Below, one piece after another: positions 2,123 through 39,197 of a stretch of 64,000 bases of DNA; position 1 is the stretch's first letter, and each line of letters begins with the position of its first letter. The stretch is from an uncultured Pseudomonadota bacterium. GTDB lineage: Bacteria > Myxococcota_A > Polyangia > Fen-1088. The notes beneath the pieces are model-generated. The model was not told the origin of the DNA and ran no database searches. It was given only the letters and a program-made list of their open reading frames with translations. The stretch spans positions 111,418 through 175,417 of the forward strand of contig CAVSOL010000006.1 in assembly GCA_963729535.1 (NCBI GenBank). The letters are read 5' to 3'. Position numbers and translations under genes: made by a program.

Positions 2123-2713
2123 TTAGTTCTCGGTGGTTGGCACCACCGCGATAGCGTCGATTTCCACTAGCCAGTCGGGGCGGCCTAGGCCGGCCACAAA
2201 CGTCACCGTGACCGCGGGTGGCCGGCCACGGAAAGCTGCTGCACGCGGCTGATACGCTTCGAATCCTTTCTGGATCGATTGGCCCGCGAGAAGTTGGATG
2301 TCCATCTTGACCACGTGTTCGAGGCGCGCGCCTCCGGCGGCCAGTACCGCCTCAAGATTGTCGAGAGCTCGCTCCGTTTGCGCCTTGAGGTCACCTTTTC
2401 CGACGACCTTGCCCGAAGCGTCGACGGCGTTCTGGCCGCCGACGTAGATGGTGCGCGCCGGGCCGGTGGCCATCACCCCCTGCGAGAATGCCGGGTTCTT
2501 AGGCACAGTGTCGGGATTCAATGCCGCCAACCCAGCGGCCTGCGGGGTGTGACTGCTCCGCCCCGTACGTGTCTCTTGCCCATTGGACCGCTGTTCCGTC
2601 TTCGTGTCCGTTCGACGGCTCTTGTCATCGGCGAAGCCTCGGCCAGCGAGCGTAACCGCCGCGAGGAGCATCGTCGCTCCGAGAACCCGAACTCCGATCC
2701 TGTGGTGTCGCAT
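2123..2713 (-). CDS. ridA: RidA/YjgF family protein with N-terminal secretion signal and extension
   Basis: RidA-like core (TIYVGGQ..., VKMDIQLL..., C-terminal VEIDAIAVVPTTEN) preceded by a signal-peptide-like N-terminus. Confidence 0.8.
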   Translation of the reverse strand: MRHHRIGVRVLGATMLLAAVTLAGRGFADDKSRRTDTKTEQRSNGQETRTGRSSHTPQAAGLAALNPDTVPKNPAFSQGVMATGPARTIYVGGQNAVDASGKVVGKGDLKAQTERALDNLEAVLAAGGARLEHVVKMDIQLLAGQSIQKGFEAYQPRAAAFRGRPPAVTVTFVAGLGRPDWLVEIDAIAVVPTTEN

Positions 2714-3115
2714 GGGCGAAACCTAAACATCTCGGGGGGGCCTGCTAGGGCGGAGCAAGGCCAGGACAGCGGAGCGGTAAGGGTAGGTTTCGTTGACGGC
2801 AGCTTTGAATGCTTCTCGCTTGTCGCGGGACCTTTCTGCCCGCGTAGCGGATGCAGCTTGGGCAGCAATTGAGCTGACGCGTCGGGTGGGCGTCGAACGC
2901 TCCGGCGCGGCGTTCGTGCAGATGGACATCTGGATCGAACGATCCGATCTATTCCCCGCGATAGCCCGGGATCGATCCACGACATCGCGTGCAGTCGGCA
3001 CAAAGAAAGTCATACCCCTCCTCAAAGTTCTGAGTCCCCGGTCCGGCGCTTCAACGCGGAAACGGTTCGCGGCCCGGCATCGATATTGAAGGGTATGGTC
3101 GAGGAGGTGTTGGTT

Positions 3116-3739
3116 ATGCGGGAGATGTGCGTGGTTTGTTCGGTTCTGGTGGTTGTGTTCGGGGGATGCGCAGGTGACGGTGAAGAATGGATCGAGCTCG
3201 AGCAAGCTCGGGACCCGATCTCCAGTTGCGTCGGGCAGCGCGCCGCTGTGCCCGCGTCACTTTCCGTCTCCCGCGCCGTCGGCCCGCCGGTCGATCAGCC
3301 CGAAAGCACGCGGGCGGCCGACTACGTCTCGTATCAGTTGTTTGGCCCCGAGATCTTCGTTTATTTCTCGTTCCTGCCCGGTCTTCCGGAGTCACCCACC
3401 ACCGACGACGTGCGCACGTTGTTGAAATATTCGTACATCGACTTCAACCTCAAACAGCCGCCGGACATCGGAGGCAGCCTCACTCTGTCCCGTGACCTGG
3501 TGCTGCTGCACGTAGCGGATTTCGAGCAACTGGAGGTGATAGGCGGCCAACTTAGGTGGCGCTTTCGCGGCGAGACCAGCGGCACCTACGAAAAGGACCT
3601 GACGCTCTACGACCAGGATCCCACCAACGATCCGTCCGATATCGACACCTGCCTCATCACCGACGTTCTCGGCGAATGCACCTGCCACTTCGGCGGTCCC
3701 CCCATGACCTTCAACTTGACGGGCACCATCCCGTTGTAG
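3116..3739 (+). CDS. Hypothetical lipoprotein encoded in a lower-GC (about 58%) patch
   Basis: ATG at 3116 with GGAGG 8 nt upstream; signal MREMCVVCSVLVVVFGGC; diverse amino-acid composition; local GC drop over 3290-3760. Confidence 0.5.
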   Translation: MREMCVVCSVLVVVFGGCAGDGEEWIELEQARDPISSCVGQRAAVPASLSVSRAVGPPVDQPESTRAADYVSYQLFGPEIFVYFSFLPGLPESPTTDDVRTLLKYSYIDFNLKQPPDIGGSLTLSRDLVLLHVADFEQLEVIGGQLRWRFRGETSGTYEKDLTLYDQDPTNDPSDIDTCLITDVLGECTCHFGGPPMTFNLTGTIPL

Positions 3740-3756
3740 TTTTCGTTGGAAGCCGG

Positions 3757-3933
3757 CTACGCTGTCGCGCCTCCGGCACGTTCGAGTTGGCGTTGCTCTG
3801 GATACCGGACTCGAAAACGTTGGCTGGACGGCGAAGGGCCAGTCAGCTCAGGGCGGCGGGCGAGACCCAGGACGACGCCGGCGCGCGCGTGCTCGCCGCC
3901 ATCGCGCGGTTCGTGACGGCGAATTCGTAGCGC
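3757..3933 (+). pseudogene. Tyrosine-integrase fragment (LLWIPDSKTLAGRR box)
   Basis: Translation ...FELALLWIPDSKTLAGRRRASQL... matches the box-I region of the integrase pseudogene at 42255-42480. Confidence 0.4.
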
Positions 3934-3935
3934 TA

Positions 3936-5445
3936 CTACCAGATGCGGAAGTTGCCGCTGACGTGGACCATGCCGAGCATGTAGAGCACCCCGCCCCAGT
4001 AGTCGCGGGATGGGACGGCGGTCGACCAGAGCTTGTCCACGAAGGCTTTGCCCGAGGATGACGGCAAGCCGAAGCCCAGGGTGGAGTTGCACCCCACCGC
4101 TGGGGCGCCGTTGTTGCGGGAGCTGGAGTAGGCGGCGAACTTGGGCGCGTACGTGTCCCTCTGCCAGGGATCTTTGCCGAACAGATACCAGTCCATCATG
4201 AGGTTGGCGACGCATCGGGTCGAATCGGCATTGGCGGCCTGCGGGTTTGTGGCGGTGAAGCTGGCTTGGTAGGGACAGACGCCGTTGCTGTCCACCACCT
4301 TCTGCATGTAGGCGCGCCCCGCGGTCGCAGATTCCTTCCAGAAGGCCGCGTTCTCGGTGTCGAAGCAGGCCCACACCTCGTAGAAGGCCGGCAGGACGTA
4401 CGAAGGATCCACGTTGTTCGAGTTGGAGACGAACTTGATCAGGTGGTATTGCGAGTTGAAGTACTTGGTCCGTACCACGTCGAGAACCCACTTGGCCTCG
4501 GTCGAGTAGGCGATCTTGGCGGGGCCGGTCGAGTCGCCCCAGCGGTGCGAGGCGAAGATGAGGGCGGTCGCGAAGTACTCCTCGCCGTCCGGCGCTCCAC
4601 CGCCGGCGCACCCCGAGCCCGAGGTCGCGCACCGCCATCGAATCTCGCCGGTGGTGCCTTGCGCCATGTGGGTCTTGACCCAGGTCCAAAGGCGGTCGAA
4701 CTCGGTCTGATGGTCGAGCTGAACCGCGACCATCATGCCGTAGGACATGCCTTCGGAGCGCACGTCATTGTTGTAGATGTCCTGGACATACGATTCGTTC
4801 GCGCCGGGCCCGTTGAAGTAGATGGTCCCCGAGCCGCTGGGGTTGAAGAGCGAGGACCAGGCCCTGCTGACCTTCTCGTCGCTCTCCGCCTGGGTGTGAC
4901 CGGAGACGGTGACGAAGAGATTGGCGTAGCTCGCGGGTGGCGTGCACTCTCCGCGGGTGCCGCCGCTGCCGGTGGTGCCGGCGGTGGAGCCGCCCGCCGC
5001 GCCGCCGCGTCCGGACGCGCCGGCAGTGCCCCCCGCGCTGCCGCCTCTGCCGCCGCGGCCTGATGTGCCGGTGACGCCGCTCGCACCGCCGGCGCCGGTG
5101 CCCGCCGTGCCGGTGGTGCCCGCCGTGCCGGTGGTGCCCGCGCCGCTGCTGGTGCCCGCGGCGCCGCCTAGTCCCCGCGCTGCCTGTCGTTCCGGCGGCG
5201 CCGGTGGTGCCCGCATCGCCCGGGCCGATGATGCCGGCGGCGCCCGTGGTTCCGCCTTCGCCCAGAGCGGACGACCCGGCCATCGCGCCTACGCCCGTCG
5301 TGCCTGCGTTCCCGGCTGCCGTGCCTGTGTTCCCGGCACTCCCGCTGTTGCCGGTTTCACCCGGGGTGCAAGCCGCCAGCGCCACCGCGGCGAGATAAGA
5401 AACGAGGACGCGGATCGACGCTCCTGACCGATGGGGGCGGCACAT
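3936..5445 (-). CDS. Glycoside hydrolase family 8 lipoprotein with Gly/Thr/Ala-rich linker (needs one frame correction near 5170)
   Basis: GH8 signatures SEGMSYGMM and APDGEEYFATALIFASHRW. The signal peptide MCRPHRSGASIRVLVSYLAAVALAAC and linker are in the frame of ORF 4765..5598, and the catalytic domain is in the frame of ORF 3936..5216. Confidence 0.65.
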
Positions 5446-5619
5446 CGCTAATTGGAATTCCCGCGCCGCCGCAACCGGATCCCTTGCGATCACCCAGAAC
5501 CCGAGCACGGCCGGATTGATTTCCGACGGAAAGGTGCCACACGCACCCACAGGTTCAGCAGGAGACGATGTTCGTCGCCGGCACGCCCCATCGAGCAATG
5601 TTCTCGGGATCGCTGGTCA

Positions 5620-5902
5620 GAACCATGGCGTCTCGGTGGACAGCCACCGGACCATTCTTGCAGCGGCGAAGACGTTCTTGCGGTGGCCCCGATTCTACTG
5701 CTCGTCGGCACCGAGAACGGAATGTGGGGGCAATCGAACGTCGTCTGTCGCGGTGCTCACCGAGCAACTGGGCCGCGAACAGGTGACGCTGCAATCCGTC
5801 GCCGGCTACGGACACCAGGACATGTTCATCGGGCGCAGCGCGGCGTTGGACGTGTTCCCCTTCATCGGGGACTTTCTACGCGCGCACGGAGCCAAAACCT
5901 AG
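5620..5902 (+). pseudogene. Gene fragments: integrase N-terminal-domain fragment followed by alpha/beta-hydrolase-like C-terminal fragment
   Basis: VSVDSHRTILAAAKTFLRW matches MLSVDSHRTMLAAAKTFFRW of the integrase remnant at 42028..42258 (+); ...GYGHQDMFIGRSAALDVFPFIGDFLRAHGAKT* resembles a hydrolase C-terminus. Confidence 0.35.
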
Positions 5903-6059
5903 CTCAGCGCGGCTCGCAAGTAGTCGACGCGCGCCGTCCCGACATCAGCTCGAAGCCGCGCTCGGCGATGCGCTCGCGCAGGGTCGGCCACGAGCTCTCG
6001 CGCGCGTGCGACCAGGTCGAAGACCGAGGAGCCGCCGAAGAAGCCGCCTGGACCGGAGC

Positions 6060-6230
6060 GGCCCACACCGTACCGACTCCCCTGGGCCGACCTTCTTCGC
6101 CGCGTGTTCCTTCTCGACGCGCTCGAGTGCCCGCGCTGTCACGGCCGCATGCGCATCGTCGCCGCGGTCATGGAGCCTGGTGCCGTCGAGCGCATCCTCC
6201 GGCACCTCAGGGAGCGTGCCGCTCCGCGCC
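6060..6230 (+). mobile_element. IS91-like (rolling-circle type) transposase C-terminal fragment, tentative family assignment
   Basis: PYRLPWADLLRRVFLLDALECPRCHGRMRIVAAVMEPGAVERILRHL. A second copy of the same motif set lies on the minus strand at 41500-42030. Confidence 0.45.
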
Positions 6231-6290
6231 GCCTGAGCGCGAGCATCGCTCGCTCGGCTCTCGCTGGGAGTGCGAGGCGATCGATCGCGT

Positions 6291-6944
6291 CTAGCGCGGT
6301 CGCAGCAGGACCCGAGCGGGGGCGCCGTCGGCGTCGTGGATTCGCAACGGGAGGCAGATGAGATCGTAGAGTCCGGGCGCAATTTCGGAGAGGTTGAGCC
6401 CCTCGATGACGCAGATGTCGGCTTCGAGCAGGGCGCGGTGAATCGCGGGGCCGTCGTCGCCGCCGCCGATGGAGAGGTAGTCGACGCCCACCGTCGCGAC
6501 GCGATGCGCGGCCAGGACCCTCGCCCCGGCGAGAGAGAGGTACGTGTAGTCGGGAACGAAGCGATCGTCGCGCCAGCAGCGCGCGGAGTTGTCGGTGCGG
6601 AACAGCAGCCGCTCGCCTGCGACGGGGGCGGCCTTCTCGATCGCGTCGGCGGTGATCGTGCGGGCGTCGGGCAAGGCGACCACGCGAGCCGGGCCGAGCA
6701 GGCGCCCGAGCGGCAGCTCGTGGATCCCGGGTGCCCCGACGATGAAGTGCACCGGCGCGTCGACGTGCGTCCCGGTGTGAACCCCGAGATCGAGGTGCGT
6801 CACCGTCGCGGGGTGCCCGTGCTCGAGATCCTTCACGCGGGTCACATGCACCGCCGGATCGCCCGGCCAGTGCACCATGCCGTCGCGGATCGGCACCGTC
6901 ACGTCGAGCCAGCCGCCATCGGTCGCGACCCCGGTTGTGCTCAT
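6291..6944 (-). CDS. Cyclase family protein (kynurenine-formamidase-like fold)
   Basis: HxGTHxDAPxH motif (LGVHTGTHVDAPVHF); 217 aa. Confidence 0.85.
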   Translation of the reverse strand: MSTTGVATDGGWLDVTVPIRDGMVHWPGDPAVHVTRVKDLEHGHPATVTHLDLGVHTGTHVDAPVHFIVGAPGIHELPLGRLLGPARVVALPDARTITADAIEKAAPVAGERLLFRTDNSARCWRDDRFVPDYTYLSLAGARVLAAHRVATVGVDYLSIGGGDDGPAIHRALLEADICVIEGLNLSEIAPGLYDLICLPLRIHDADGAPARVLLRPR

Positions 6945-9568: not shown

Positions 9569-9589
9569 GAGCCCCTTCAGGGAACCAAG

Positions 9590-9703: not shown

Positions 9704-9871
9704 GCCAGGAGCGCGGGGAGCCCGGCAGGGGCATCACGTTCACGTTCGACGATCGCGACCCGGGCGTCGTCGCGATCGCTTGTCCGTCTCGGGCAGCGAC
9801 GAGCTGCGCACGGGCTGAGTCCGCACCGGCGCCGTCGTCGACCGTCTGGCGCTCGGTGGTATTGTCCGCGT

Positions 9872-13269: not shown

Positions 13270-13410
13270 TGGGCCGCGAAGCGCGAGGCGGTGGCGGGGG
13301 GCGCAGCAGAATCGGGCGCTGGCGGTGCTCACCGGAGGGCGGCTGGCGTTGTGATGGGGGGCCTCCTCAATACCTGCGGAGGCGCCTCCAATCGTTCGAC
13401 CCACCGCCGC
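13270..13410 (+). mobile_element. att-like remnant: last about 85 nt of the integrase gene plus the GGCCTCCTCAATACCTGCGGAG...CCAATCGTTC spacer
   Basis: Near-identical to 38650-38775 and 42715-42840; encodes ...AKREAVAG(G)AQQNRALAVLTGGRLAL* with one extra G. Confidence 0.45.
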
Positions 13411-16281: not shown

Positions 16282-17587
16282 ATGCCTAGGTCCACACGAG
16301 TTCGATCGAAGAGGCTGCGCGGCGTCTGGTTGCTGTCGGCCCTGACGGTGGTCGTCGCCGGCTGCGGCAGCGTGAGCTCGACGCCGGACGGATCGACAGG
16401 CGGTTCGTCGGGTGGTGCTCATCTGCGGGTCGCGGCGGCACCACCGGATCGGCGGGCACGACGGGCGCAGCCGGCACCACAGGCGCGGCAGGAACCACAG
16501 GCGCAGCTGGCACGACGGGCGCAGCGGGGACCACGGGTGGAGCTGGCACGACGGGCGCAGCGGGAACGACCGGTGCCGGCGGCAGCGGAGGCACCACCGG
16601 TGCGGGCGGCGCCGCAGGTGCCGGCGGTCGCGGTGGCGCGGGCGGTGCTGCGGGCACAACAGGCGCCGGCGGCGCGGCGGGCGGGCGCGGGGGCACGGCG
16701 GCGCGGGCGTGGCGGGAAGGGGCGGCACCGGCGGCAGCGCGGGCGCGGCCGGCCGCGGCGGTACGAGCGGGGTCACCGGCGCGGGCGGCAACCGCGTCGC
16801 GTGCCAGACCGACGCCGAATGCCAGCTCTTCAAGTGCTGCAACGGCGTCTGCGTGAACACGTCGAATGACATCCTCAATTGCGGCGGTTGCAACAAACCG
16901 TGTGCGGGACCAGATCCGTATTGTGGCAATGGCACCTGCAGCACACCGCCTTGCGGAACAACGAGCTGCATGGGCGCCACCTGCTGCGGCACCCAGTGCT
17001 GCACCGCAGGCCAGCTCTGCTGCTTCATCGAGGTCGGCCCCGGCACCCTGCGCTGCTCCGATCCTGTGCTCGGTACGTGCCCCCAGGGCTGCATCTCCGG
17101 CTGCCCGTGCACCGCGCCCACGACACCGGTTGCAACACCCGCGGGCTCGCGCGCGATCGCGGACCTGCGCCCAGGTGACCTCGTCTACAGTGTCGATCAC
17201 GGCGCGTTCGTCGTCGTTCCGATCAAGCTCGTTCACCGCACGCCGGTCGCCCCGACGCACCGGGTGGTCGAGGTGAAGCTGGCGCACGGCGTGATCCTGA
17301 ACATCACGCCCGATCACCCGACGGCGGACGGCCGCACGTTCGGCGATCTCGCGCCCGGCGACCGCCTCGACGGCGTGCGCGTCGACGCCGTTCGCGTCGT
17401 CCCCTACGGGCAGGCGTTCACGCACGACATACTGCCCGACTCGGATTCGGGCAGCTACGTCGCGGGCGGCGTCCTCATCGGCTCGGCCCTCGCGGCGCCG
17501 GTCGCCGGGCACGTGGTCCGCGCCAGCGCGGGAGGTCGACGAGCCAGCCTGCCACCGCCGCCGCGCTCCAGCGAATTTCAAGAATAG
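16282..17587 (+). CDS. Lipoprotein with (GTTGAA)n linker, Cys-rich module and C-terminal Hint (Hedgehog/intein-type) domain; two frame corrections needed (about 16420 and about 16690)
   Basis: Signal MPRSTRVRSKRLRGVWLLSALTVVVAGC is in frame 1, the GTTGAAGTTG linker in frame 0, and the Cys-rich plus Hint region in frame 2 (...RAIADLRPGDLVYSVDHGAFVVVPIKLVHRT...VILNITPDHPTADGRTF...). Confidence 0.6.
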
Positions 17588-17950: not shown

Positions 17951-19126
17951 TCACTGCAGGCGGTAGTCGAAGCCGGCGCGGCTGATGGCGTGGGCGACGA
18001 CGGCGTTGCCACAGTCGAACTGCTCGATGAAGAAGGCGTTTCGGTGGGGCGAATATGTGATGCTGTTGGGGGTGAAGGGCATCGGCTCGCCGATGGGCTG
18101 GAACGACACGCCCTTGTCGGTGGAGATCATGAGCTTCTGGCTTCCGGGCACGACGATGCGGCCGTCGGGCAGCTCGATGGGATGGCCGGTCTTGAGCGTG
18201 CCGGCCTGGATGGTCTGCGTCCAGGTGCGGCCCTGGTCGGTGCTCTTGATCAGGCCGCGGTCGTAGATGAGCGACCAGTAGATCGTCCCGTCCGAGGCCC
18301 ACAGCGGCAGGGCGGCCGCCGATGCGCTGGTCGTGGGCGTCCAGGTCTTGCCGCCGTCGGTGGTACGGAAGACGCCGTCGGTGCCACCCGCGTAGCCGGA
18401 GCAGCCGACCAGGTGAACGTTCCTGTCGATGACCAGGGCGTTCGTGCAGAAGTTCGTGCCGGCGGGCAGGTTGTTGCCGACGTTTGTCCACGTGGCGCCG
18501 CCGTCCTGCGAGCGGTACAGCGTCTGCTTCTGCTCGTGGCCGCCCGCCAGCAGCGTCTGGCGCTGCGGGTCGGCGAGGTCGACGCTGACGGAGTCGATGT
18601 GGCGCGCGTCGCCCAGCGGCGTGAACGTCGCGCCGTTGTCGGTCGTGCGGTAGACGCCGGGGCCGTTGTAGATGCCGGACTCCCAGAACGTGGCGGCGTG
18701 CGCGGGGTCGAAGACGATCGACGAGCCGCGGTTGGTGATCTGCTGCATGCCCGCCGCGGGCCACAGCTGGGTCCAGCTCGCGCCGCCGTTGGTGCTGGAC
18801 CACAGCCCCTGCTTCGCGACGCTGGTGATCAACATGTCGCTGGCGGGGTGCGCCGCCAGGTAAGGCGTGTTGCCGCACTCGGAGGCCATGCCCGCGAGAT
18901 TGGCGGTGACGTTGGTCCACGCCGCCGGCGGCGTCTCGCCCACCGGCGTGACCGTCATGCCGGCGGCGCCCGTCGTGCCCGCGCCGCCCGTCGTGCCCGC
19001 CGCACCCGTCGCGCCCCCGGCGCCCGTCATTCCCGCCGCGCCGGGCGTTCCAGCCTCCGAGCCTGCCGACGAACAGCCCGCCAGCACAGCGAGCGCCACC
19101 AGCGTCCATCGAGGTGCAACGTTCAT
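17951..19126 (-). CDS. BNR/Asp-box repeat lipoprotein (beta-propeller)
   Basis: MNVAPRWTLVALAVLAGCSS signal with a strong GGAGG SD; six SxDxGxTW-like boxes (STNGGASWTQ, TTDNGATFTP, SQDGGATWTN, TTDGGKTWTP, STDQGRTWTQ, STDKGVSFQP). Confidence 0.75.
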   Translation of the reverse strand: MNVAPRWTLVALAVLAGCSSAGSEAGTPGAAGMTGAGGATGAAGTTGGAGTTGAAGMTVTPVGETPPAAWTNVTANLAGMASECGNTPYLAAHPASDMLITSVAKQGLWSSTNGGASWTQLWPAAGMQQITNRGSSIVFDPAHAATFWESGIYNGPGVYRTTDNGATFTPLGDARHIDSVSVDLADPQRQTLLAGGHEQKQTLYRSQDGGATWTNVGNNLPAGTNFCTNALVIDRNVHLVGCSGYAGGTDGVFRTTDGGKTWTPTTSASAAALPLWASDGTIYWSLIYDRGLIKSTDQGRTWTQTIQAGTLKTGHPIELPDGRIVVPGSQKLMISTDKGVSFQPIGEPMPFTPNSITYSPHRNAFFIEQFDCGNAVVAHAISRAGFDYRLQ

Positions 19127-27984: not shown

Positions 27985-28090
27985 AGGTGATGTGAAGAAG
28001 AACGAGTAGTTACAACCAGCAATCGTTCCCTCGACGAGCGAAACGTCAGCGATTCACAAGACTTGCGTCGGGAACGATTGGGGCGTTTGT
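27985..28090 (+). repeat. MITE-like inverted-repeat element, copy 1 (TIR AATCGTTCCC / GGGAACGATT)
   Basis: GTGAAGAAGAACGAGTAGTT...CAATCGTTCCCTCGA..AGCGAAACGTCAGC...GGGAACGATT; a second copy lies at 38880-38975; low-GC context. Confidence 0.45.
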
Positions 28091-28145
28091 AGTCCGACCT
28101 GGCGGTTGCTTCAAATCGGCGCTCTCAATCTCTCCTTCTCAGCGG

Positions 28146-30098
28146 TCAGGGCACGCGTCGTCGCAAGATCCCGCCGAACCCACCCGCGCCCCAGATGTCG
28201 TTCCGGCCGCTGCCCCAGATCGAGTCGATCCCCGGCGACGGGGTGTCGGTCCAGACGCCGTTCTCGAAGTGGTGAACGTTGCGGCCGCCGACAAAGGCTT
28301 CGCCCGCGCCTGGTGACCAGACGTCGCCTACCGATTCGTGGTCCCAGAAGCGAAGCCGCGTCCAGCTCGTCCCGTCGAAATGGTTGACGGTGTCGCCGGG
28401 GATGTAGAACGGAACGAAGCGTGACCACACGTCATCGGGAGCGTTGACCCAGATGTCGCCTCCGCCGCCCGGGGGAAGCAGCGTCCAGCCGCGGCCGTCC
28501 CACCGCGCCACCGCCGACGCGGCGTACTGTCGCTGGCTGCCACCGACCCAGACGTCATCGACACCGGTTCCGTGGACATGGCTGGGCAAGAAGTCGAACG
28601 GAAAGTCGACCGGCGACCAGGCGATGCCATCCCAGTGGAACACTTGCCCCTCCGCACCCGTCGGCCCCTGCCGCAGCGTCGTCATCCATGCATCGTCGGG
28701 TTTCGCACCCCAGATACTCCTGACCTCGTCGCTGCCGATCGAAAACGTCGTCCACGTCGTCCCGTCGCGGATCGCGAGCAGGCCGGCCGTGCCTCCCACC
28801 CAGACCGTGTATTCGTCAGGCACCCAGACGGTCATGATTGTGGCCGCCGGAGCGCCGGGCGGCAGCGGAACTTCGCGAAGCGCACTGCCGTCCCAGCGCA
28901 GCAGGGCGGTTCCTCCGAACCAGACGTTCTGCGGTCCGGTGCCGCGGATCTCCGCGACGCGCGCGGACGACCCCCGGGTCACGCGGCGCCAGACACCGCC
29001 CGCCAGCTCGTGGATCTCGCCGCCGCTGCCGACCGTCATCGCGACGCCCGGTTGGTCCGCCCACAGGCCCGTGGTGAACATCCCGGTCGCGGCGACGGCG
29101 ATGGTCCAGATCGATCCGTCGAGGTGGTAAACCCTGCCCTCGACGTCCAGGGCCCAGACGTCGTTCGGCGCCGTGCCGCTCAGGGCCGTGATGACAGCCG
29201 GCGCTTGATCGGCCGCCAGCGACGGCTGCCACGCCGAGCCGTCCCAGCGTTCGATCGCTTGCAAGGAGCCTCGGGTTAACGCGCGAAACGCCGAGTCGGG
29301 TCCGCTCGCCCAGATGTCCATGATCAGGCCGCCCGCCCCCGCGTCTTCGGATCTCCAGGCGGCGCCGTTCCATCGCAGCACCGTTTGCCCCGAGGCGATC
29401 CAGACGTCGTCACGCGCCGTGACCGCGACCCGCTCCGAGGAATCCTGCCGAATCAGCAGCGCGCTCGCGGTCTCGTCTAGGCGCCAAGCGCTGCCGTCGA
29501 AGTGCGCCACCGTGAGCGGGCCGACCGCCCAGACGTCGTCGGGCGCGCTGCCGTGAACGTCCTGCAGGATCTCCTGCGTCCGGAACACCTCCGACCAGCG
29601 AGCGCCGTCCCAGTGCAGGACGGCGCCGGCGGGTCCCAGCGTCTCGAGGTTTGCCCCGACCGCCCAGACCGAAGACGGGCCCGTCCCCCAGATGGCCCTC
29701 ACCTCGATGTCGGCGCCGCTCGCGACATGGGCCCAGGTGCCGTCGGCGCCGCGATGCAGGAACATGCCCGGCGTCTCGAGGCTGGCCCACACGTCGCGCG
29801 GCGAGCTCCCCCAGACGGCGATCAACCGGCGCCCCTGCGGCAGCGGGTTCACCCAGCACCAGCCGTCGGGCTCGCACAGCGCCGGCTGCATCACGACCGG
29901 CGGCGTGCCCCCGTCAGGGGCTCTGTCGGTGGCGGTGTCCATGGGCGCCCCGGCGTCCGCGCCCGTCATCGGCCTGTCGGGCTTGCTACCCGCATCGCGG
30001 TGCGGGGGGAGACCGGGATGGTCCACCCCGCAACCTGCGCCTGCGATCAGCAACCCCGCGACCAGCGAAACCCCGACCCCGACACGCAACGCCGCCAT
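28146..30098 (-). CDS. Large lipoprotein with about 13 tandem copies of an uncharacterised beta-propeller-like repeat (DVWAVG...HWDGxxW)
   Basis: ATG at 30098 with AAGGGAGGG SD; signal MAALRVGVGVSLVAGLLIAGAGC; repeat units of about 45 aa throughout. Confidence 0.75.
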   Translation of the reverse strand: MAALRVGVGVSLVAGLLIAGAGCGVDHPGLPPHRDAGSKPDRPMTGADAGAPMDTATDRAPDGGTPPVVMQPALCEPDGWCWVNPLPQGRRLIAVWGSSPRDVWASLETPGMFLHRGADGTWAHVASGADIEVRAIWGTGPSSVWAVGANLETLGPAGAVLHWDGARWSEVFRTQEILQDVHGSAPDDVWAVGPLTVAHFDGSAWRLDETASALLIRQDSSERVAVTARDDVWIASGQTVLRWNGAAWRSEDAGAGGLIMDIWASGPDSAFRALTRGSLQAIERWDGSAWQPSLAADQAPAVITALSGTAPNDVWALDVEGRVYHLDGSIWTIAVAATGMFTTGLWADQPGVAMTVGSGGEIHELAGGVWRRVTRGSSARVAEIRGTGPQNVWFGGTALLRWDGSALREVPLPPGAPAATIMTVWVPDEYTVWVGGTAGLLAIRDGTTWTTFSIGSDEVRSIWGAKPDDAWMTTLRQGPTGAEGQVFHWDGIAWSPVDFPFDFLPSHVHGTGVDDVWVGGSQRQYAASAVARWDGRGWTLLPPGGGGDIWVNAPDDVWSRFVPFYIPGDTVNHFDGTSWTRLRFWDHESVGDVWSPGAGEAFVGGRNVHHFENGVWTDTPSPGIDSIWGSGRNDIWGAGGFGGILRRRVP

Positions 30099-30450
30099 GG
30101 ACCCTCCCTTCGGAACACCAACCCGTCCCGAAGCTAAGGCGCGCAGCAACGCTAAGAAGCAGGGAGACCTCCCGCTTCGTCGCGTGCGCCGCTAGAGCGG
30201 CGACGACGTCGGCGATTCCCAGGCGCTGAACGCGACGTGCTGGATCGTGGCGTCGCTGAACACGCTCACGCTACCGCCGAAGAACGCGCCCCGGTAGGTG
30301 CGAAGCCCGTCCTCGATCACGAGCGGACCGTTGATCGCCACCACCGTGCCTCGGAAGACGGTCGTCGTCCCGCCGCCGCCCAGCGTCGCGCCGCCGGCGC
30401 CGCAACTCGAGGCGTCCATCATCCAGCGCGAGGCGACGCCGAACATCTCC

Positions 30451-31759
30451 ATGTTCGCGATAAGGTCGCTTCGGATGGGGGAGACCTTCGACGCGCCGTC
30501 GCTCGAGCGCGAGGCCGCTGCGGTCCTCGGCCGAGCGCTGGCGCGTTCATCCGCGTTGCACTTGCCGGGGATGCGGGACCAACATCGCGCCGAGGTCGAG
30601 CGGGCGATCGAGCTGGCGCACAACGCGCTCACCGTCGCGGACGCCGACGGTGGCATCCCCGAGACGATCGCGGGGGCGCGGTCCACGTTGGTGAAGGCCT
30701 ACGCCGCACGGGCCCGCGACGCGCGCCACGGAGCGGGCCAGCTGTCACTCGGCGCCCAGCGCGCCCCGACGCGCGACGACTGCCACGACGGCTGGCAGCG
30801 CGTCGAAGACATCGTGCGCGTCGCAGAGGCGGCGGCGGTCGAAGCCGCGCGCCTGGCGCTCCTGCTCGGCCAGTCGCCGGTACAGAGCGCGGCGCAAGTG
30901 GCCGAGGCGGCGGCAAGGGACGCGCGGCGGATCGTCGGCGAGCGAAATCACGCCTACACGTTCCATGTGGATCCGGGGTTCTCGTTCGGCGAGGGGTGGT
31001 ACCTCGCGGCCGCGGCCGTCCTCGCCAGCGTCGCGATCCAGATCGAGCCAGACAAGCCGCACACGTCCCAGGCAGAGCGGTTCCTGCGAGACGCCGGGCT
31101 CGCCGCGCTGTTCCAGCCCTATCGCTCGCGCCCCCGCGCCAACAAGCATCTCCCCGAGATCGTCGCGAGCGCCTTCCGCGCTGATCCGAACGCCGCTCAG
31201 CGCCGGCTTCGTGCCGCGTTCCTCGGCGACGCTCCGATCTCGCGCGCCGTCGCCGACTGGATCGACCAGAGGCTCGCCGGTGCCGCCGCGGGCAAGACCG
31301 TGTTGCTCTGGGTCCGGCACGGCACGCACCACCCGGCACGCAACACCAGGCATCCCGAGCTCGTCGAGCTCGCCCGCCGCGCGCTCGACGCGGGGCTCGT
31401 GCCCGTGCTCGTTGGCGACGCCGTGCGGGGCGGCGAAGCGCCGGCCGGCGCCGTCGACTGCACGCTGTTCTGGAAGGAGCCCCGTGTTTCAGGGCCCCGA
31501 CATGCGCCGAGCGCAGCTGCAGCTGTTCGAGCACATGCAGCGCGCGCACGGCCTGGTCGGTCAGCTCGGCGTCACCACGGCCGGCATGGACGGACCCGCG
31601 CTGATGGGCCTCCCGACGATATATCTGACGGAAGCTCCGAACGTGCGGCTCGGCGCCTGGGTGGGCGCTGTTCCGAACTACCGCGAGATCGTGCGCGGCG
31701 ACGCGCACCTCGAGCAGGTCAGCCGCACGCTGCGACGCTGGGCGGCCGGCAGCGATTAA
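30451..31759 (+). CDS. Hypothetical alpha-helical protein (frame correction needed about 31480)
   Basis: N-terminal 340 aa in ORF 30298..32088; the C-terminal 90 aa (...AVPNYREIVRGDAHLEQVSRTLRRWAAGSD*) are in ORF 30965..31759. Confidence 0.45.
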
Positions 31760-31778
31760 CGCCCGCGCGGTTGGCCGC

Positions 31779-32790
31779 TCATTCGAGATCCCGCCACGAC
31801 GGGGGCAGATTGCGCTCGATCTCGAGGGCGCCGAAGCCCGGCCTGTCTCGCGCACCGACCTGTTGCGCCCAGGCGGCCATCGCGCTCACACCGTCCTCCA
31901 GACGCACGGCGTCCCGAAAGCCGAGCAGCGCATGCGCCTTCGCGTGTGACGCGTGCACGTGCTCGGCCTCGAACCGCGCCGGCAGGTACTCGGGCCGGAA
32001 CGGAACGCCCATCGCGCGGCTGACGATCTCGGCGAGCTCGTTGACGCTGCAGGGACGGTCGGCCCCGATGTTGAACGTTTGGTCGTAGGCCTCGGGCCGT
32101 TCGATCGCTGCCACCATGACGGGCGCCACGTCCGACACGTGGCTGAACCCGCGCGTCTGCGTCCCGTCGCCGAAGATCGTGAGGGGCTCGCCACGCAGGA
32201 TCTGGTTCATGAAGATGCCGACGACGTTGCGGTAGCGGTCGCCGATGTTCTGGCGCTCGCCGTAGACGTTGTGGGGGCGGAAGACGATCGAGCGCAGGCC
32301 GAAGACGTCGCGGCTGATGCGCAGCTCCTGCTCGACCGCCGCACTTGCCGATGCCGTAGGGATCCGCGGGCGCGGGCGGCGTCTCCTCGGTGACCGGAGG
32401 CGCCGCGTGGCCGTACACGGCGATGGAGGACGCGAACACGAAGCAGCGAACCGCGTGGTTGATCGAGGCGTTGATCAGGTTGACGCTGCCGATCAGGTTG
32501 TTCTGGTAATTGAACCGCTTGATGAAGTGGCTCAGGCCTTCGGCGGCATACGCCGCGAGGTGGAACACGTACGCGAAGCGGTGTTCGTCGAACAGACGCC
32601 CGACGAGCTCGACGTCCAGGATCGACCCCGCGACGAACGTGGCTCGCGCGTCGACGTTGCCCCGCAAGCCACCCGACAGATCGTCGAGCGCCACGACCTC
32701 GTGGCGGCGCGCCACGAGCCCATCGACAACGTGCGAGCCGATGAGTCCGGCGGCTCCGGTCACCAAAACCTTGGCGCTCGATCCCGTCAA
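31779..32790 (-). CDS. NAD-dependent epimerase/dehydratase (SDR family; frame correction needed about 32340)
   Basis: VLVTGAAGLIGSHV Rossmann motif and PYGIGK (YxxxK) in ORF 31756..32790; AAVEQELRISRDVFGLRSIVFRPHNVYGERQNIGDRYRNVVGIFMNQILRGEPL... in the other frame. Confidence 0.8.
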
Positions 32791-32859
32791 GCGCGTCAGG
32801 TTACCCCGAACTGAAAATCGCCGTCCGCGGGGCTACCCGCGGCCAGCTTCGCGGAGTCC

Positions 32860-33010
32860 GTGCAGTCATATCTCGTCGAGCTGGCGCGGGGTCGGGATCC
32901 GCAGGCTGCGCTTTTCGGGGAGCACTGGCGTGACTGGCCGCGGAAGTGGGTGCAGCGGATTTGCAAGGCGGCGGGTGTGCCGAACGTCTCGGCACACGGG
33001 ATGCGTGGCC
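32860..33010 (+). pseudogene. Tyrosine-integrase internal fragment
   Basis: SYLVELARGRDPQAALFGEHWRDWPRKWVQRICKAAGVPNVSAHGMRG, near-identical to 38410-38560 and 42500-42650. Confidence 0.4.
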
Positions 33011-33282
33011 GGCGACTTCACCGCCGACGGCCTACCCGACATCGTCGTCGCCAACAAGAAAGGCGCGTTCGTGTTCATCCACGAGACGGGTGCCTCCGCC
33101 GGCCAGTGAGGCACCGCCGCGCTAAACAGGCCTTCGGCGTGTCGCAGTTCTGCGAGCACTTTTGAGAACGACAAACTCTCCGACCTGCGAAGGGGAGTAC
33201 GACGCCCGACGATGGGTTCGTGATCCGCTGAGGTTCGCTCGGTTGCGGGTCTGCGTCTGCCTCCCGTAGACTCCGGCGGCGC

Positions 33283-34830: not shown

Positions 34831-34845
34831 CCCCGAAGGAGCACG

Positions 34846-35832
34846 ATGGGAATCCTGAGACGGCAACTCCGGTCGGTGATCGAATGGAAAGGCGTCGACG
34901 GCAAGGCGCTGTTCGCCCAGTGGTCTGACAACGGCGACGAGATCAAGAACGCCTCGAAGCTCATTGTCGGACCGGGGCAGGGGTGCATCTTCGTGTACGA
35001 GGGGCGCGTCGCGGCCGTCCAGCTCGAGCCCGGCATCTACCCGCTGAAGACCGCCAACATCCCGTTCCTCACCACGCTCAAGAAGGTCATGCAGTTCTTC
35101 GTGAGCGAGCACAAGGTCGGCATCTACTACTTCCGGACGGCGAAGCTCCTCGATCTGAAGTGGGGGACACCGTCGCCGATCAAGTACGACGACCCGGTCT
35201 ACAAGTTCCCGGTCACGTTGCGCGCCTTCGGCAACTACGCCATGCGCATCACCGAGCCCGGCGCTTTCTTCCGCGACGTGGTGGCCGGCAAGGATCCGTT
35301 CCTGATCGACGACATCCGCGAGCCCTTGAACGCCCGCCTGATCCAGCCGCTGGTCGACTTCCTGGCAGAGTCCAAGCTCAGCTACTCCCAGATCGACCCG
35401 GCCCGCGAGGAGATCGCCGCGGCGCTGACGCGCAAGCTGGCGCCCGACATCGAACGGCTCGGCTTCGAGCTCGAGGACTTCCGCATCGAGGGGACCAGCT
35501 TCGACGAGGACACCATGCGGCGGATCGACCGCATCGCTGACGTCGGCGCCGACCTCCACGCCGCCAGCGCAGCAGGTCTCACCTACGCGCAGATGCAGCA
35601 GCTCGCGGCGCTGCGCGACGCCGCCAAGAACGAAGGCGCGGCCGGCGCCGGGATGGCGATGGCCATCGGGATGGGTATGGGGAGCGGCCAAGTCGCGGCC
35701 GGCGTGGCGGCGACGCCGGCCGACGACGCGGCGGGCGCGAAGCTGCGCAAGCTGAAGATCCTGCTCGACCAGGGGCTGATCACGCAGGCCGAGCACGACG
35801 CGAAGCGGATCGAATCCTCGCCTCGCTCTGAG
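34846..35832 (+). CDS. SPFH/Band-7 (Band_7_1-type) domain protein with C-terminal SHOCT domain; C-terminus reads through repeat RPT-A
   Basis: GAAGGAG SD; WKGVDGKALFAQW...KLIVGPGQGCIFVYEGR...GIYPLKTANIPFL...YYFRT...WGTPSPI...LRAFGNYAMRITEPGAFF; SHOCT tail KLRKLKILLDQGLITQAEHDAKRIE. Confidence 0.75.
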
Positions 35833-35928
35833 CGGATAAGAAGAACAAGCGCGCTTTCGCCGATAAGCTCCCTTCCGTTAACCGCGCCTGGCCTCGACTT
35901 CTCGGGCCTTCGGCCCCCCCCTTGCCGG
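35833..35928 (+). repeat. RPT-A 95-bp repeat, copy 1 (contains CGGGCC-UUCG-GGCCCG hairpin)
   Basis: GCGGATAAGAAGAACAAGCGCG..TTCGCCGATAAGCTCCCTTCCGTTAACCGCGCCTGGCCTCGACTTCTCGGGCCTTCGGCCCCCCCTTGCCGGGG; other copies at 38978 and 41325. Confidence 0.5.
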
Positions 35929-36183
35929 GGTCGCTTGCTGGGGCGGGCCCTCACTCGGCATGTTGATCTACGGCGCGGGCGGCGATCGGAGGGGCGGGGG
36001 CCAGCGCGACATGCGACCTCTGGTAGTTCGTAAGCAGTCTATACTTAATGGTGGCGGACGCCCAGGCAACTCTCGACCGCGACCAGAACGTCATTGGCCG
36101 GTCTGAGATCGCTTCTGAAAAAGCGTTGGCACTTGATATGGCGATAGCGGGATTAGACCACGCCCCCATGAGCATCGACGGCC

Positions 36184-37941
36184 TCACTGCCGCCAGAACA
36201 GCGCGACGACCTGTTGCGTGTAGTCCGTGTACGAGCGGTAGGCGCCGCGTAGCCACAGCAGCGCGCGCTGGCTGCCGTCGCCGCCCGACGGCAGCAGCGG
36301 GCGGAGGTTGTCGCGGTTCGAGTTCTGAGTGATGGGCGTCCACGACCACGTCGCGCCCTGATCGGCGGTGACGCCGCGGTAGATCTCGTAGTGGCGGCGG
36401 TTGTCGGCGGTGCTGGTCAGCGGCGCGCCGGTCGTCGGGTTGGCGTTGGTCGATATGTAGACGACCGACGGATCGAAGGGGTCGAGCGTGGCGAGGCCGC
36501 TGTAGTCGTCTTCGTTCGCGTAGAGGCGCGATCCGGCGTAGGCGAGCGCAAAGTCACGCCACGCGGTTCCGTCCCAGCGCGCGTAGCGGTACCGGATGTC
36601 GTCGCCGCCCTGCCCGGTCGGAAGCCCCGCCGAGTTCATCTGCACGGAATAGGTGACGACCGGACGCCCCTGCGCGTCGAGTACCGTGTCCGAGCCCCAG
36701 GCCACCCGTTGCGCGTCGGCCTGGTAGATGCGTGTGCCCTGGTTTGGCATCGCCAGCCCCTCCGTCAGCGCGGCGATGCGCGTGCCGTCGCTGCGGTAGA
36801 GCAATCCGGCACGATAGAACACGTGGTAGAGGCTGGTGTCGAAGTCGCGCGGGTGCGCCTCGGTGTAGACGAGGTGGATGGTGTCGGTGCCGTTGCTCGC
36901 GTAGCGCACGTAGGGCCGTTGCAACGTGCCCGTGGAGGGCACGTTGATGACGACGTTGCCGCTTCTCCACGTCTGGCCCGAGTCGTCGGAGTACGCGTAG
37001 GACGGTTTGAAGCTGGCGTCGAGGCCACGGTAGAAGTCGTAGATACGGTTGGATTCGGACGACAGCAGGAACAGGTTGCTGTAGGTGAGCTTGGTCGTGG
37101 CGCTGGGGACGTAGGTCTGCTCCGCGGCCCACGTCAGCCCGTCGGTCGCCTGCGAGATGCGGTAGTAGAACCGGTTCTCGGTGTCATGTTTCCCGTACAC
37201 GCTGAGCAGGCGGCCGTCGGGGCGGACGAGAAACGCAGGTGAGTCGTGATCGTCGAGCTCGAGCTGTGCGTGCAGCTCGATGATGGTGGTGGTTCCCGTG
37301 CCGAGGTCGTGGACGAGCGCGCGCGCGTTGCCGCGGATGTTGGCGTTGCTGACGCCCGACGACAGCGTACCGACAATCATGCGGTTGCCGTAGAACAGCG
37401 CGCGCGGGCCCTGGAACCAGCACCAGCCGCCGTCGTCGGACAGCACCACCGGCGTTCCGGTCGGACCACCGGCCGCCCCGGAGGCACCACCGCGACCGCC
37501 GCCACCTATTCCGCCCGCGCCGGCCGACGCCCCGCCACGGCCAGCGCCTCCCACGCCGCCACCGGCGGCAGCTCCAGCACCGCCGGTCCCCGCGGACCCT
37601 GTCGCGCCCGCGCTGCCTGAAGTGCCCGCGCTGCCGCTGGTTCCCGCCGCGCCCGTGGTTCCCGCGGTGCCGGTCGTCCCCGCCCCGCCAATCGTGCCGG
37701 CCACCCCGGTCGCGCCCGCGCTGCCTGAAGTGCCCGCGCTGCCGGTGGTCCCGGCCGCACCCGTGGTGCCGGCCGCGCCCGACGTTCCCGCCACGCCTGT
37801 CGTTCCCGCGCCGCCCGAGATCCCAGCGCCGCCGCTCGTTCCGGCTGCACCGCTCGGCCCGGATCCCGACGGTGCGCAAGCGAGCAGCATCGCCGCCGAG
37901 ACCAGCGTCAGGACTCTACGCAGACACGACGTCGCCGACAT
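36184..37941 (-). CDS. BNR/sialidase-fold glycoside-hydrolase-like lipoprotein with in-frame (G[AS]AGT[TS])n linker, intact
   Basis: MSATSCLRRVLTLVSAAMLLAC signal; about 100-aa hexapeptide-repeat linker; SDDGGWCWFQ..., Asp-boxes SDDSGQTW and ADQGATWSW. Confidence 0.8.
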   Translation of the reverse strand: MSATSCLRRVLTLVSAAMLLACAPSGSGPSGAAGTSGGAGISGGAGTTGVAGTSGAAGTTGAAGTTGSAGTSGSAGATGVAGTIGGAGTTGTAGTTGAAGTSGSAGTSGSAGATGSAGTGGAGAAAGGGVGGAGRGGASAGAGGIGGGGRGGASGAAGGPTGTPVVLSDDGGWCWFQGPRALFYGNRMIVGTLSSGVSNANIRGNARALVHDLGTGTTTIIELHAQLELDDHDSPAFLVRPDGRLLSVYGKHDTENRFYYRISQATDGLTWAAEQTYVPSATTKLTYSNLFLLSSESNRIYDFYRGLDASFKPSYAYSDDSGQTWRSGNVVINVPSTGTLQRPYVRYASNGTDTIHLVYTEAHPRDFDTSLYHVFYRAGLLYRSDGTRIAALTEGLAMPNQGTRIYQADAQRVAWGSDTVLDAQGRPVVTYSVQMNSAGLPTGQGGDDIRYRYARWDGTAWRDFALAYAGSRLYANEDDYSGLATLDPFDPSVVYISTNANPTTGAPLTSTADNRRHYEIYRGVTADQGATWSWTPITQNSNRDNLRPLLPSGGDGSQRALLWLRGAYRSYTDYTQQVVALFWRQ

Positions 37942-38214
37942 TGTTGCTAGCCTTTACTATTTCCCCCACGCGGTCAAACGCACGTTGGTTCGGGACGTGT
38001 GTCGCGACATAGGCTCGTGCTAGGAGCGCTGCCGGGCGGGTTCCCAGGGAATCCGCGCTGTCGTTTGCCAAGCGAAGGGCAGATTCGAACGGAATCAACG
38101 ACGGCCGCTTGGGCCTGCACTTCGACTTCAGCTCCCGCAATTTCCGCGAGGCGTCGCCTCCTGCGGACACCGGCAGAAGCTTTGCGAGAGAGATCGGCCG
38201 CGAGCTAGAGGTGC

Positions 38215-38736
38215 GTGCGCCTCACACGTCGAGAGCGGCCAGCGCAAATCCGACGTGGCGATACTGCAGATCCTCCACTGCGCGCTGGGCGGCGTGGCCT
38301 GAGCACCACTGACAGGGCGTCCTGGCCGAGCGGAGCGCGGCGCCTCTCTGTTCAGTTCCTTGAGCGCATTTTCATGAAGAGCGCTTTTGCAGGTACTCGG
38401 ACGTTTCTGCAGCCGTATCTCGTCGAGCTGGCGCGGGGTCGGGATCCCAGGCGGCGCTGTTCGGGGAGCACTGGCGTGACTGGCCGAGGAAGTGGGTGCA
38501 GCGGATCTGCAAGGGGGCGGGTGTGCCGGAGGTCGTCGGCGCACGGGATGCGTGGGCAATGCGACGAAGGAGGCATGGCGGTGGATAGCGGGATCACCTC
38601 TCACGCGGTCGCATCGGCGCTCGGCCACGAGTCGTTCAAGACGACGGCCGAGAGTTACGCGAAGCGCGAGGCGGTGGCGGGTGCGCAGCAGAAACGGGCG
38701 CTCGCGGTGCTCACCGGTGGGCGGCTGGCGTCGTGA
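38215..38736 (+). pseudogene. Tyrosine integrase 3' remnant (second copy)
   Basis: ...FLQPYLVELARGRDP...GITSHAVASALGHESFKTTAESYAKREAVAGAQQKRALAVLTGGRLAS* spread over two or more frames. Confidence 0.55.
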
Positions 38737-38878
38737 TGGATGGCCTCCTCAATACCTGCGGAGGCGCCCAATCGTTCTCCAATCGTTCCCAGAACCGTAC
38801 TTTCAATCCGAACTGAAGAAAAACCGAAGTGCTTTCGTGGAGCTGAACGGGATCGAACCGTCGGCCTCCTCAATGCCA
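38737..38878 (-). mobile_element. att-like segment: spacer with tandem CCAATCGTTC(C) motifs plus duplicated 3' 42 nt of tRNA-Ala (38837-38878)
   Basis: Direct repeat of 42803-42944; the tRNA-derived part runs from the anticodon loop to the 3' end. Confidence 0.55.
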
Positions 38879-38879
38879 T

Positions 38880-38975
38880 TTCGGGGTGAAGTGAAGAAGA
38901 ACGAGTAGTTGAGACAACCAATCGTTCCCTCGATAAGCGAAACGTCAGCAGTTTCGAAGCTTTGTAGTGGGAACG
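38880..38975 (+). repeat. MITE-like inverted-repeat element, copy 2
   Basis: Same termini (AATCGTTCCC...GGGAACGATT) and core as 27985-28090. Confidence 0.45.
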
Positions 38976-38977
38976 AT

Positions 38978-39072
38978 TCGAATCACGCTCGCCGATAGGC
39001 TGCCTTCCGTTAACCGCGCCTGGCCTCGACTTCTCGGGCCTTCGGGCCCGGGCCCCCTTGCCGGGTAGCTGG
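38978..39072 (+). repeat. RPT-A repeat, copy 2
   Basis: GCTCGCCGATAGGCTGCCTTCCGTTAACCGCGCCTGGCCTCGACTTCTCGGGCCTTCGGGCCCGGGCCCCCTTGCCGGG. Confidence 0.5.
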
Positions 39073-39197
39073 CACCACCGCGATAGCGTCGATTTCCACC
39101 AGCCAGTCGGGGCGGCCTAGACCGGCCACAAACGTCACCGTGACAGCGGGCGGGCGGCCACGGAAAGCTGCTGCGCGCGGCTGATACGCTTCGAGAG
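39063..39197 (-). pseudogene. Duplicated 3' fragment of ridA (about 93% identical to 2134-2262), same orientation as the intact gene
   Basis: Alignment of GGCACCACCGCGATAGCGTCGATTTCCAC.AGCCAGTCGGGGCGGCCTAG.CCGGCCACAAACGTCACCGTGAC.GCGGG.GG.CGGCCACGGAAAGCTGCTGC.CGCGGCTGATACGCTTCGA between the two loci. Confidence 0.5.

Follow-up and report, generated by a model that had tools for sequence, protein, structure and literature searches.

A direct repeat of the ridA 3' end in an uncultured Polyangia bacterium is the remnant of a second ridA, probably left in an array of decayed tRNA-Ala-targeting islands

We analysed a stretch of 64,000 nucleotides (nt) from an uncultured Polyangia bacterium (GenBank assembly GCA_963729535.1, contig CAVSOL010000006.1; hereafter the window), in which the 3' end of ridA, a gene of the RidA/YjgF/L-PSP family at 2123-2713, recurs as a 131-bp fragment near 39 kb. 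We find that this fragment, here called ridA', is the remnant of a second, destroyed ridA, and that it is not an attachment (att) site. The true att repeat in this region is the 3' 44 nt of a nearby tRNA-Ala gene. The history that we favour, and regard as probable, is that decayed islands targeting this tRNA-Ala accreted in tandem, that one of them brought in a second ridA, and that this second gene was later cut down to 131 bp, probably by recombination or deletion associated with a small dispersed repeat that we call XY.

The fragment at 39 kb retains codons 152 to 194 of ridA

The intact gene and the two copies of the repeat are as follows.

2123-2713, minus strand: ridA, RidA/YjgF/L-PSP family, 196 codons, intact (open reading frame (ORF); Pfam PF01042, E 3.4e-18)
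2132-2262, minus strand: left repeat copy, ridA codons ~152-194
39064-39194, minus strand: right repeat copy, ridA', of which only codons 152-194 are kept; allele of the type carried by metagenome contig L083

The segments 2132-2262 and 39064-39194 are gap-free direct copies that are identical at 123 of 131 positions (93.9%), as seen by repeat search (family D8), MAFFT and blastn (E 7e-53). The product of 2123-2713 matches PF01042 over its full length (model positions 10-121 of 121), and the 131-bp copy corresponds to the last ~43 codons only. In the right copy, the in-frame homology to ridA reaches codon 194, two codons short of the stop, and codon 193 is altered. No further ridA-like pieces were detected in the window by tblastn, and no homology flanking the 131-bp copies was detected by blastn beyond the repeat itself. 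An earlier reading made from the letters by themselves (the sequence-only reading) had described a copy at 39 kb about 93% identical to the ridA 3' end and in the same orientation, which all three methods confirm; its estimate that identity stops three to four codons before the ridA stop is near enough to the two codons that we measured; and its placing of the right copy within a mosaic of repeats also holds, with a tRNA-Ala 3' fragment at 38837-38880 and a repeat resembling miniature inverted-repeat transposable elements (MITE-like) at 38989-39065.

ridA' is bounded to the base by a previously undescribed repeat family

XY is a new, previously undescribed family of small dispersed repeats of ~100 nt (consensus GGATAAGAAGAACAAGCGC...CCTTCCGTTAACCGCGCCTGGCC...GGGCCTTCGGGCCCCTTGCCGGG) with GC-rich hairpins. 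The window holds four copies, all on one strand and within 5.6 kb.

35832-35929, plus strand: XY copy 1, complete, just past the SHOCT domain of an SPFH gene whose ORF reads through it
38989-39065, plus strand: XY copy 2, without approximately the first 28 model positions (repeat family D6; nhmmer positions 29-88, E 2.9e-13)
39195-39290, plus strand: XY copy 4, diverged (alignment; nhmmer E 6.7e-4 at 39200-39278)
41330-41432, plus strand: XY copy 3, complete (alignment, nhmmer)

XY copy 2 ends on its right at 39065 and copy 4 begins on its left at 39195; the ridA' sequence (39066-39194) takes up exactly the gap, and both ends of the right repeat copy coincide with XY termini (39065/39066 and 39194/39195). 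The right terminus of copy 2 abuts ridA' codon 194, and the left terminus of copy 4 abuts codon 152. The XY junction thus explains why identity ends before the ridA stop codon, and no recombinase crossover is needed to account for it.

Eleven XY matches were found, confined to the window and related Polyangia-type loci. Those outside the window lie in L088 (1264-1352), L117 (2009-2097 and, on the minus strand, 1153-1239), L128 (438-525), L143 (2287-2333), L099 and L138. Complete copies share sharp ends and have unrelated flanks, and window copies 2 and 3 match each other at 97% across 75 nt. Neither terminal inverted repeats nor target-site duplications are visible in an alignment of nine copies, XY matched no Rfam family in a scan of 35.7-43.1 kb that gave tRNA only, and RNAalifold returned weak hairpins with slight covariation. 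Since terminal inverted repeats, target duplications and an Rfam match are all missing, we use "MITE-like" as a descriptive label only.

The position of copy 3 beside a fragment of an IS91-family (Y2_Tnp) transposase, together with GTTC/CTTG in the flanks, prompted us to ask whether XY could be an IS91-family terminus (oriIS). We rejected this, as only copy 3 adjoins IS91, none being found at 35832 or in L088, L117 and L128, and the related loci that carry XY show no IS91 similarity, nor does the fragment match anything in the other related loci. At copy 1, the frame of the SPFH/Band_7 and SHOCT gene (34831-36033) continues through the repeat for ~70 extra codons past SHOCT, and insertion of this copy may have displaced the original stop codon of the gene.

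The exact bracketing of ridA' by two direct XY copies, and the clustering of the four window copies on one strand, could also indicate that the pair is a composite mobile unit, which captured a piece of ridA and moved it from another site or genome into the island unit where it now lies (unit A, 38881-42905). We consider this unlikely, because XY has no linked transposase, terminal inverted repeats or target duplications, because copy 2 lacks its outer end and copy 4 has diverged strongly from it, and because a second XY-ridA'-XY unit is absent from 1.8 Mb of related loci.

ridA' derives from a second, independently acquired ridA

In a collection of 5.8 billion proteins, the nearest relative of the resident RidA (P0121, 96% identity) is encoded on a 3.6-kb metagenome contig, L083. 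The ridA' fragment is identical to the L083 gene at 129 of 131 positions, compared to 123 of 131 for the window ridA. Six of the eight differences between ridA' and the local gene are common to L083, including T193A, and the two changes private to ridA' are both synonymous. When the two window copies are compared over codons 152-192, all six differences are synonymous third-position changes (no nonsynonymous substitution, dN = 0); under random placement among codon positions, six of six at third positions has a probability of (1/3)^6 = 0.0014. Because every difference in these codons is of this kind, the parent of ridA' was a functional gene that had diverged under purifying selection, and this pattern together with the L083-type allele identifies ridA' as a second, independently acquired ridA and not as a drifted local duplicate.

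A local segmental duplication, in which a copy of the resident ridA 3' end reached 39 kb, for instance through XY- or IS91-associated transduction or ectopic recombination, and then drifted, would fit two copies of the same orientation and 94% identity in one genome, and mobile debris does lie near both of them (integrase and IS91 scraps at 3.8-6.2 kb; XY and IS91 at 39-42 kb). However, the fragment is nearer to L083 (two differences) than to the resident gene (eight) and carries the L083 codon for T193A, a dead duplicate should change at all codon positions, which the six synonymous differences do not show, and there is no flanking homology past the 131 bp. We therefore hold a local origin to be quite improbable.

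The resident ridA is itself an accessory gene, as indicated by its low GC content at third codon positions (0.72, versus 0.85-0.95 in neighbouring and core genes), by its distant matches among 185,579 species genomes and by the differing neighbours of ridA on related contigs. All matches among the species genomes are at most 57% identical and come from other phyla, the top one (57%) from a Chloroflexia metagenome-assembled genome. Positions 1682-2375 of L083 correspond to window positions 2784->2091 (95.1% by blastn over 694 bp), and the flanks on either contig are unrelated. This segment, the sole stretch around the gene that is common to L083, defines a ridA module.

2091-2784, minus strand: ridA module, the gene with ~70 nt upstream and ~32 nt downstream

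On the metagenomic ridA contigs L083, L084, L085, L154 and L155, similarity is limited to the gene and a few tens of bases. The genes neighbouring ridA differ in L083 and L154, L084 and L085 have a common DUF3309 gene downstream of ridA, and the short contig L155, which is too short for context, resembles neither the window nor the remaining ridA loci outside the gene.

The predicted RidA protein has an N-terminal extension of ~60 residues (2536-2713) that resembles a signal peptide followed by a polar linker, and this extension is kept in the closest RidA homologs (173-199 amino acids, 72-96% identity). To our knowledge, a signal peptide is not expected in the RidA family. Apart from the module, the window and L083 share a 50-nt stretch (9750-9799 and L083 825-874; 98% identical) whose surroundings are otherwise unrelated; a perfect 10-bp stem (CGATCGCGAC...GTCGCGATCG) is present in it, and it may represent a small mobile or regulatory hairpin element.

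The att repeat of the region is the 3' end of tRNA-Ala(GGC)

To the right of ridA' lies an integration target with the remains of its integrase, and a second att core lies to the left.

42906-42979, minus strand: tRNA-Ala(GGC), intact, integration target (ARAGORN; Rfam tRNA 60.9 bits)
42803-42905, plus strand: armP, integrase-proximal att arm, with two direct CCAATCGTTCCC motifs; conserved in 23 loci
42031-42802, plus strand: tyrosine integrase pseudogene with at least three frameshifts and without ~110 N-terminal codons, ending 103 nt from the tRNA
41440-42043, minus strand: C-terminal fragment of an IS91-family (Y2_Tnp) transposase, frameshifted (Pfam PF04986, E 1.6e-9, model positions 117-177 of 183)
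38885-38981, plus strand: D10, distal att arm at the left end of unit A, with an inverted CCAATCGTTCCC pair
38837-38880, minus strand: displaced tRNA-Ala 3' fragment, second att core at the distal end of unit A, 44/44 identical to 42906-42949

The att core is the 3' 44 nt of the tRNA gene (42906-42949), and the 44-nt fragment is also found in L081, L139/L140, L104 and L123; in L081 and L123 the D10 arm stands directly beside it. The product stitched together from the integrase pseudogene matches Pfam Phage_integrase (E 3.2e-10) and is 92-96% identical to an intact 365-aa integrase in L086. A metagenome scan with this product returned 68 loci, at least 30 of which have tRNA-Ala ~100 nt downstream. 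In L086 the intact integrase is preceded by a relaxase (Relaxase/DUF3363), which identifies intact members of the family as integrative mobilizable elements (IMEs). In the window, the truncated integrase on the plus strand is joined to the IS91 fragment on the minus strand, with the fusion point at 42026-42031.

The 12-nt motif CCAATCGTTCCC occurs eight times in the window, versus 0.25 expected, and always within att arms. It forms direct pairs in armP (42837 and 42848; 38768 and 38779) and inverted pairs in D10 (38918 and 38969; 28019 and 28070), and we propose these motifs as candidate arm-type integrase sites. Unit A includes the ridA' fragment, which is separated from the D10 arm by 85 nt.

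The ridA module of L083 has part of armP (= 42875->42836) on one side and part of the integrase N terminus (= 42278->42188) on the other, which physically links ridA to this island family in another organism. At L083 1640-2451 the island integrase keeps its N-terminal part, and the module, lying between this part and the arm-site region, takes the place of the C-terminal two-thirds. We considered whether ridA is regular cargo at the distal end of these islands and rejected this, ridA being absent from the 68 integrase loci and from seven loci with a D10 arm. A further speculation, to which we give little weight, is that XY is an active non-autonomous element of uncultured Polyangia whose pairs relocate segments of host genes, XY-ridA'-XY being an example, or else that the 694-bp ridA module is a self-contained mobile cassette inserting into island integrase genes, as L083 hints.

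ARAGORN also reported a 91-nt tRNA-Pro(CGG) at 44658-44748 on the plus strand; it lies within an ORF with high third-position GC content (43956-45962) and is probably a false positive.

The window holds several decayed island units

Beyond unit A, pieces of the same integrase family and its att arms are spread over the window.

38388-38836, plus strand: integrase C-terminal fragment (38388-38736) with armP, from an older unit; 92% identical to 42460-42905, translation ending ...LGHESFKTTAESYAKRE...
27986-33008, plus strand: another island unit, with a D10 arm (27986-28080) and an integrase scrap (32852-33008)
13275-13397, plus strand: integrase 3' end and armP scrap, 92% identical to 42724-42846 (tblastn residues 348-364)
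6066-6208, plus strand: IS91-family transposase scrap, inverted relative to the 41.6-kb copy; 76% identical to 41768->41625
5621-5686, plus strand: scrap of the integrase N-terminal domain (tblastn 75%, residues 133-156; blastn 83%)
3789-3835, plus strand: 47-nt integrase scrap (LWIPDSKTLAGRR motif), 98% identical to 42410-42456 (tblastn)

The six integrase-derived scraps (3789-3835, 5621-5686, 13275-13397, 32852-33008, 38388-38736 and 42031-42802) are all on the plus strand, and every integrase copy in the window is a pseudogene. The window also has two D10 arms and two copies of armP. Near the resident ridA lie the 47-nt integrase scrap, 1.1 kb from the start of the gene, the second integrase scrap and the IS91 scrap.

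Contigs from other samples show unit junctions intact where the window is truncated, and they differ from it at the level of strains. L123 has, in order, an integrase C terminus, armP, the 44-nt tRNA fragment, the D10 arm and sequence corresponding to window 27986-29003 (95%), and L120 corresponds to window 29352-33008 (99%), followed by an integrase C terminus, armP and 26 nt of tRNA. These junctions identify 27986-33008 as another unit.

The same comparison bears on whether the XY-ridA'-XY arrangement is an assembly artefact, that is, a chimeric join such as would arise if ridA reads of a co-occurring strain had collapsed at short repeats. The source is an uncultured Polyangia genome that is apparently known from metagenomes only, XY copies 2 and 3 are similar enough (97% over 75 nt) to mislead short-read assemblers, and the allele of the fragment matches another metagenomic strain. 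Nevertheless, an artefact would require independent errors of joining at two sites 131 nt apart, neither of which has sequence common to ridA and XY, and no XY flanks the L083 ridA. Elsewhere the window agrees at 95-99% with the independent contigs L120 and L123, and past its divergence from L120 (33008) the window sequence is unique and does not continue as another repeat copy. We judge a chimeric join to be very improbable.

L081 and L082, at 75-84% nucleotide identity, have the core right of the tRNA in common with the window (Lon and neighbours, 43-53 kb) but differ in the cargo on the island side. In L081 the 44-nt fragment and the D10 arm enclose a 1.75-kb islet that encodes a PIN toxin-antitoxin pair, and L082 carries AbiEii/AbiEi. 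The region thus shows the features of tRNA-targeting islands: an adjacent tyrosine recombinase, a far tRNA repeat, a recurrent target with variable cargo, and units of the same orientation.

Two further features of the window were observed. A BNR_4 gene with collagen repeats (36184-37953, minus strand) lies on the island side; its closest homologs (69-74% identity; L082 557-2332 and L135 12733-13064) lie in the relatives on the core side beyond Lon and are inverted, and the window gene is either translocated or a paralog. Periodic repeats of 9/18 nt (4950-5290, 16430-16750, 18940-19060, 37570-37870 and 40110-40320) encode collagen-like linkers rich in Gly, Thr, Ala and Pro in several secreted proteins, and they give many weak cross-matches when the window is compared with itself.

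The ridA repeat lacks the geometry of an att pair

In elements that integrate at the 3' end of a gene, the order on the strand of the gene is intact gene, element, displaced 3' fragment (PMC5704250). Along the ridA strand, the order in the window is fragment (39194->39064), 37 kb, intact gene. The fragment thus lies upstream of ridA, and the bracketed interval (2263-39063) holds the ridA promoter/upstream region and the 5' 450 bp, or 5' two-thirds, of the gene itself. This placement of the fragment and of the 5' part of ridA by itself contradicts the att-site model: if the two copies recombined, what remained would be a 3' stub without a promoter, so that ridA would be destroyed and no attB restored. 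In addition, a Pfam search of ~45 window ORFs revealed no ridA-specific recombinase, only tRNA-Ala-type integrase scraps and IS91 fragments, and ridA occurs at none of the 68 integrase loci, the sole neighbourhood of integrase and ridA being L083 with its short integrase and armP scraps.

An element of ~2.3-39 kb targeting the ridA 3' end, with the 131-bp copies as attL and attR, had in its favour the classical signature of a directly repeated gene 3' end, one copy being whole and the other a fragment, the accessory-like unit at 27986-33008 between the copies and the integrase scraps across the remaining interval, but it is scarcely tenable given that its topology is wrong, that the recombinase remains belong to the tRNA-Ala integrase family and IS91, that the ends of the fragment are XY termini, that the fragment is a foreign allele, and that several tRNA-Ala island units are nested inside the interval.

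The integrative element proposed by the sequence-only reading, with the copies as its att sites, thus fails on topology, boundaries, recombinase and allele. Its description of the interval as ~37 kb of accessory DNA stands in part: 27986-33008 behaves as an accessory unit, and elsewhere an accessory nature is suggested by integrase scraps only. The fallback that it offered, repeat-mediated rearrangement in a mosaic region, was essentially right, with tandem accretion of tRNA-Ala-targeting islands as the cause in the history that we favour.

A probable history of the region

We propose that a single family of tyrosine integrases inserted islands at the 3' 44 nt of tRNA-Ala, all in the same orientation, each newcomer landing beside the intact tRNA and shifting older units leftwards. 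The units would then have decayed by frameshifts, IS91 insertion and deletions. Two islands bearing ridA would have reached this hotspot at separate times, and insertion of all islands the same way round would explain why the two ridA sequences are in direct orientation. Selection would have retained one functional gene (2123-2713). The redundant L083-type gene, which probably arrived with the youngest unit (38881-42905), would have been hit by XY at codon 151/152 and past codon 194, and would then have lost its outer parts, the simplest route being recombination or deletion in which XY copies took part. Such an interruption by XY followed by outer loss would leave a ridA' bounded to the base by XY termini, and one deletion scar may be seen where XY copy 2, its left end truncated, meets the D10 arm.

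Several observations weigh against this history. Relatives have no full-length ridA at the position of unit A (none in the seven D10-arm loci and none in the 68 integrase loci), and the order of ridA and integrase differs between L083 and the window, so that the ancestral layout of the island is not reconstructable. The role suggested for XY-mediated recombination draws on the exact coincidence of boundaries, XY having neither target duplications nor terminal inverted repeats. The structure of the array is known from assembled contig sequence. Finally, no left core boundary of the array was found when window proteins were compared with all loci by tblastn and locus ORFs with the window, and no synteny was seen left of the tRNA; tblastx of the window against the loci was too noisy at 70% GC. 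Island origin is consequently established for 27986-33008 and 38388-42905 only, and elsewhere the scraps suggest it.

The chief value of this analysis is a correction: a direct repeat of a gene 3' end can mimic an att pair, and topology, boundaries and allele comparison reveal it as a gene remnant. Tandem accretion and decay of tRNA-targeting islands is already well known, and the lineage, uncultured Polyangia, is poorly studied. Our results leave current understanding unchanged, and the outcome will not surprise a specialist. They do provide an integrase/tRNA-Ala(GGC) att system with candidate arm sites, the XY family, and an atypical ridA with a putative signal peptide as island cargo.

Comparison with known systems

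In the published accretion model, integration is followed by decay to a cis-mobilizable element (CIME) and by entry of a further element once the target has been regenerated (PMC5704250). The array described here fits this model in having units of the same orientation and variable cargo at a shared target. Tandem arrays comprising integrative and conjugative elements (ICEs), IMEs and CIMEs have been described in streptococci, namely ICESt1-related elements at fda and IME/ICE arrays at tRNA-Lys (PMC5704250). As in those arrays, a single integrase family and a single target (a tRNA 3' end) are involved, att cores recur and the units have one orientation; the intact target lies beside the newest, integrase-bearing unit and older units are without integrase; an intact member (L086) has a relaxase; and cargo varies among relatives. 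In contrast to a textbook CIME, decay here has gone far further, leaving a single internal att core (38837-38880) with the other borders deleted, and even the tRNA-adjacent integrase is a truncated, frameshifted pseudogene. The host also differs from that of the streptococcal arrays, being an uncultured (myxobacterial) Polyangia bacterium.

Elements that target gene 3' ends include Salmonella genomic island 1 (SGI1) and mobilizable genomic islands (MGIs) at trmE or yicC, and IMEs at rpsI, rpmE and rpmG (Table 1 of PMC5704250). The ridA repeat resembles their products in being a direct 3'-end repeat with one intact and one partial copy. In those elements, however, the element lies downstream of the intact gene with the displaced fragment at its far end, whereas here the fragment is upstream and the 5' part of the gene lies inside; furthermore, there is no cognate integrase here, and the ends of the repeat are set by the XY family. 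There is also a likeness to decayed xenologs in islands, that is, surplus cargo copies worn down by insertion sequences or MITEs and by deletions; here too, one copy is intact and the other is a short in-frame stretch with synonymous differences only and borders formed by small repeats. Compared to the usual gene remnants in islands, ridA' is distinguished by a parent allele that can be identified (L083 type, 98.5%) and by delimitation on both sides by an undescribed ~100-nt repeat, XY.

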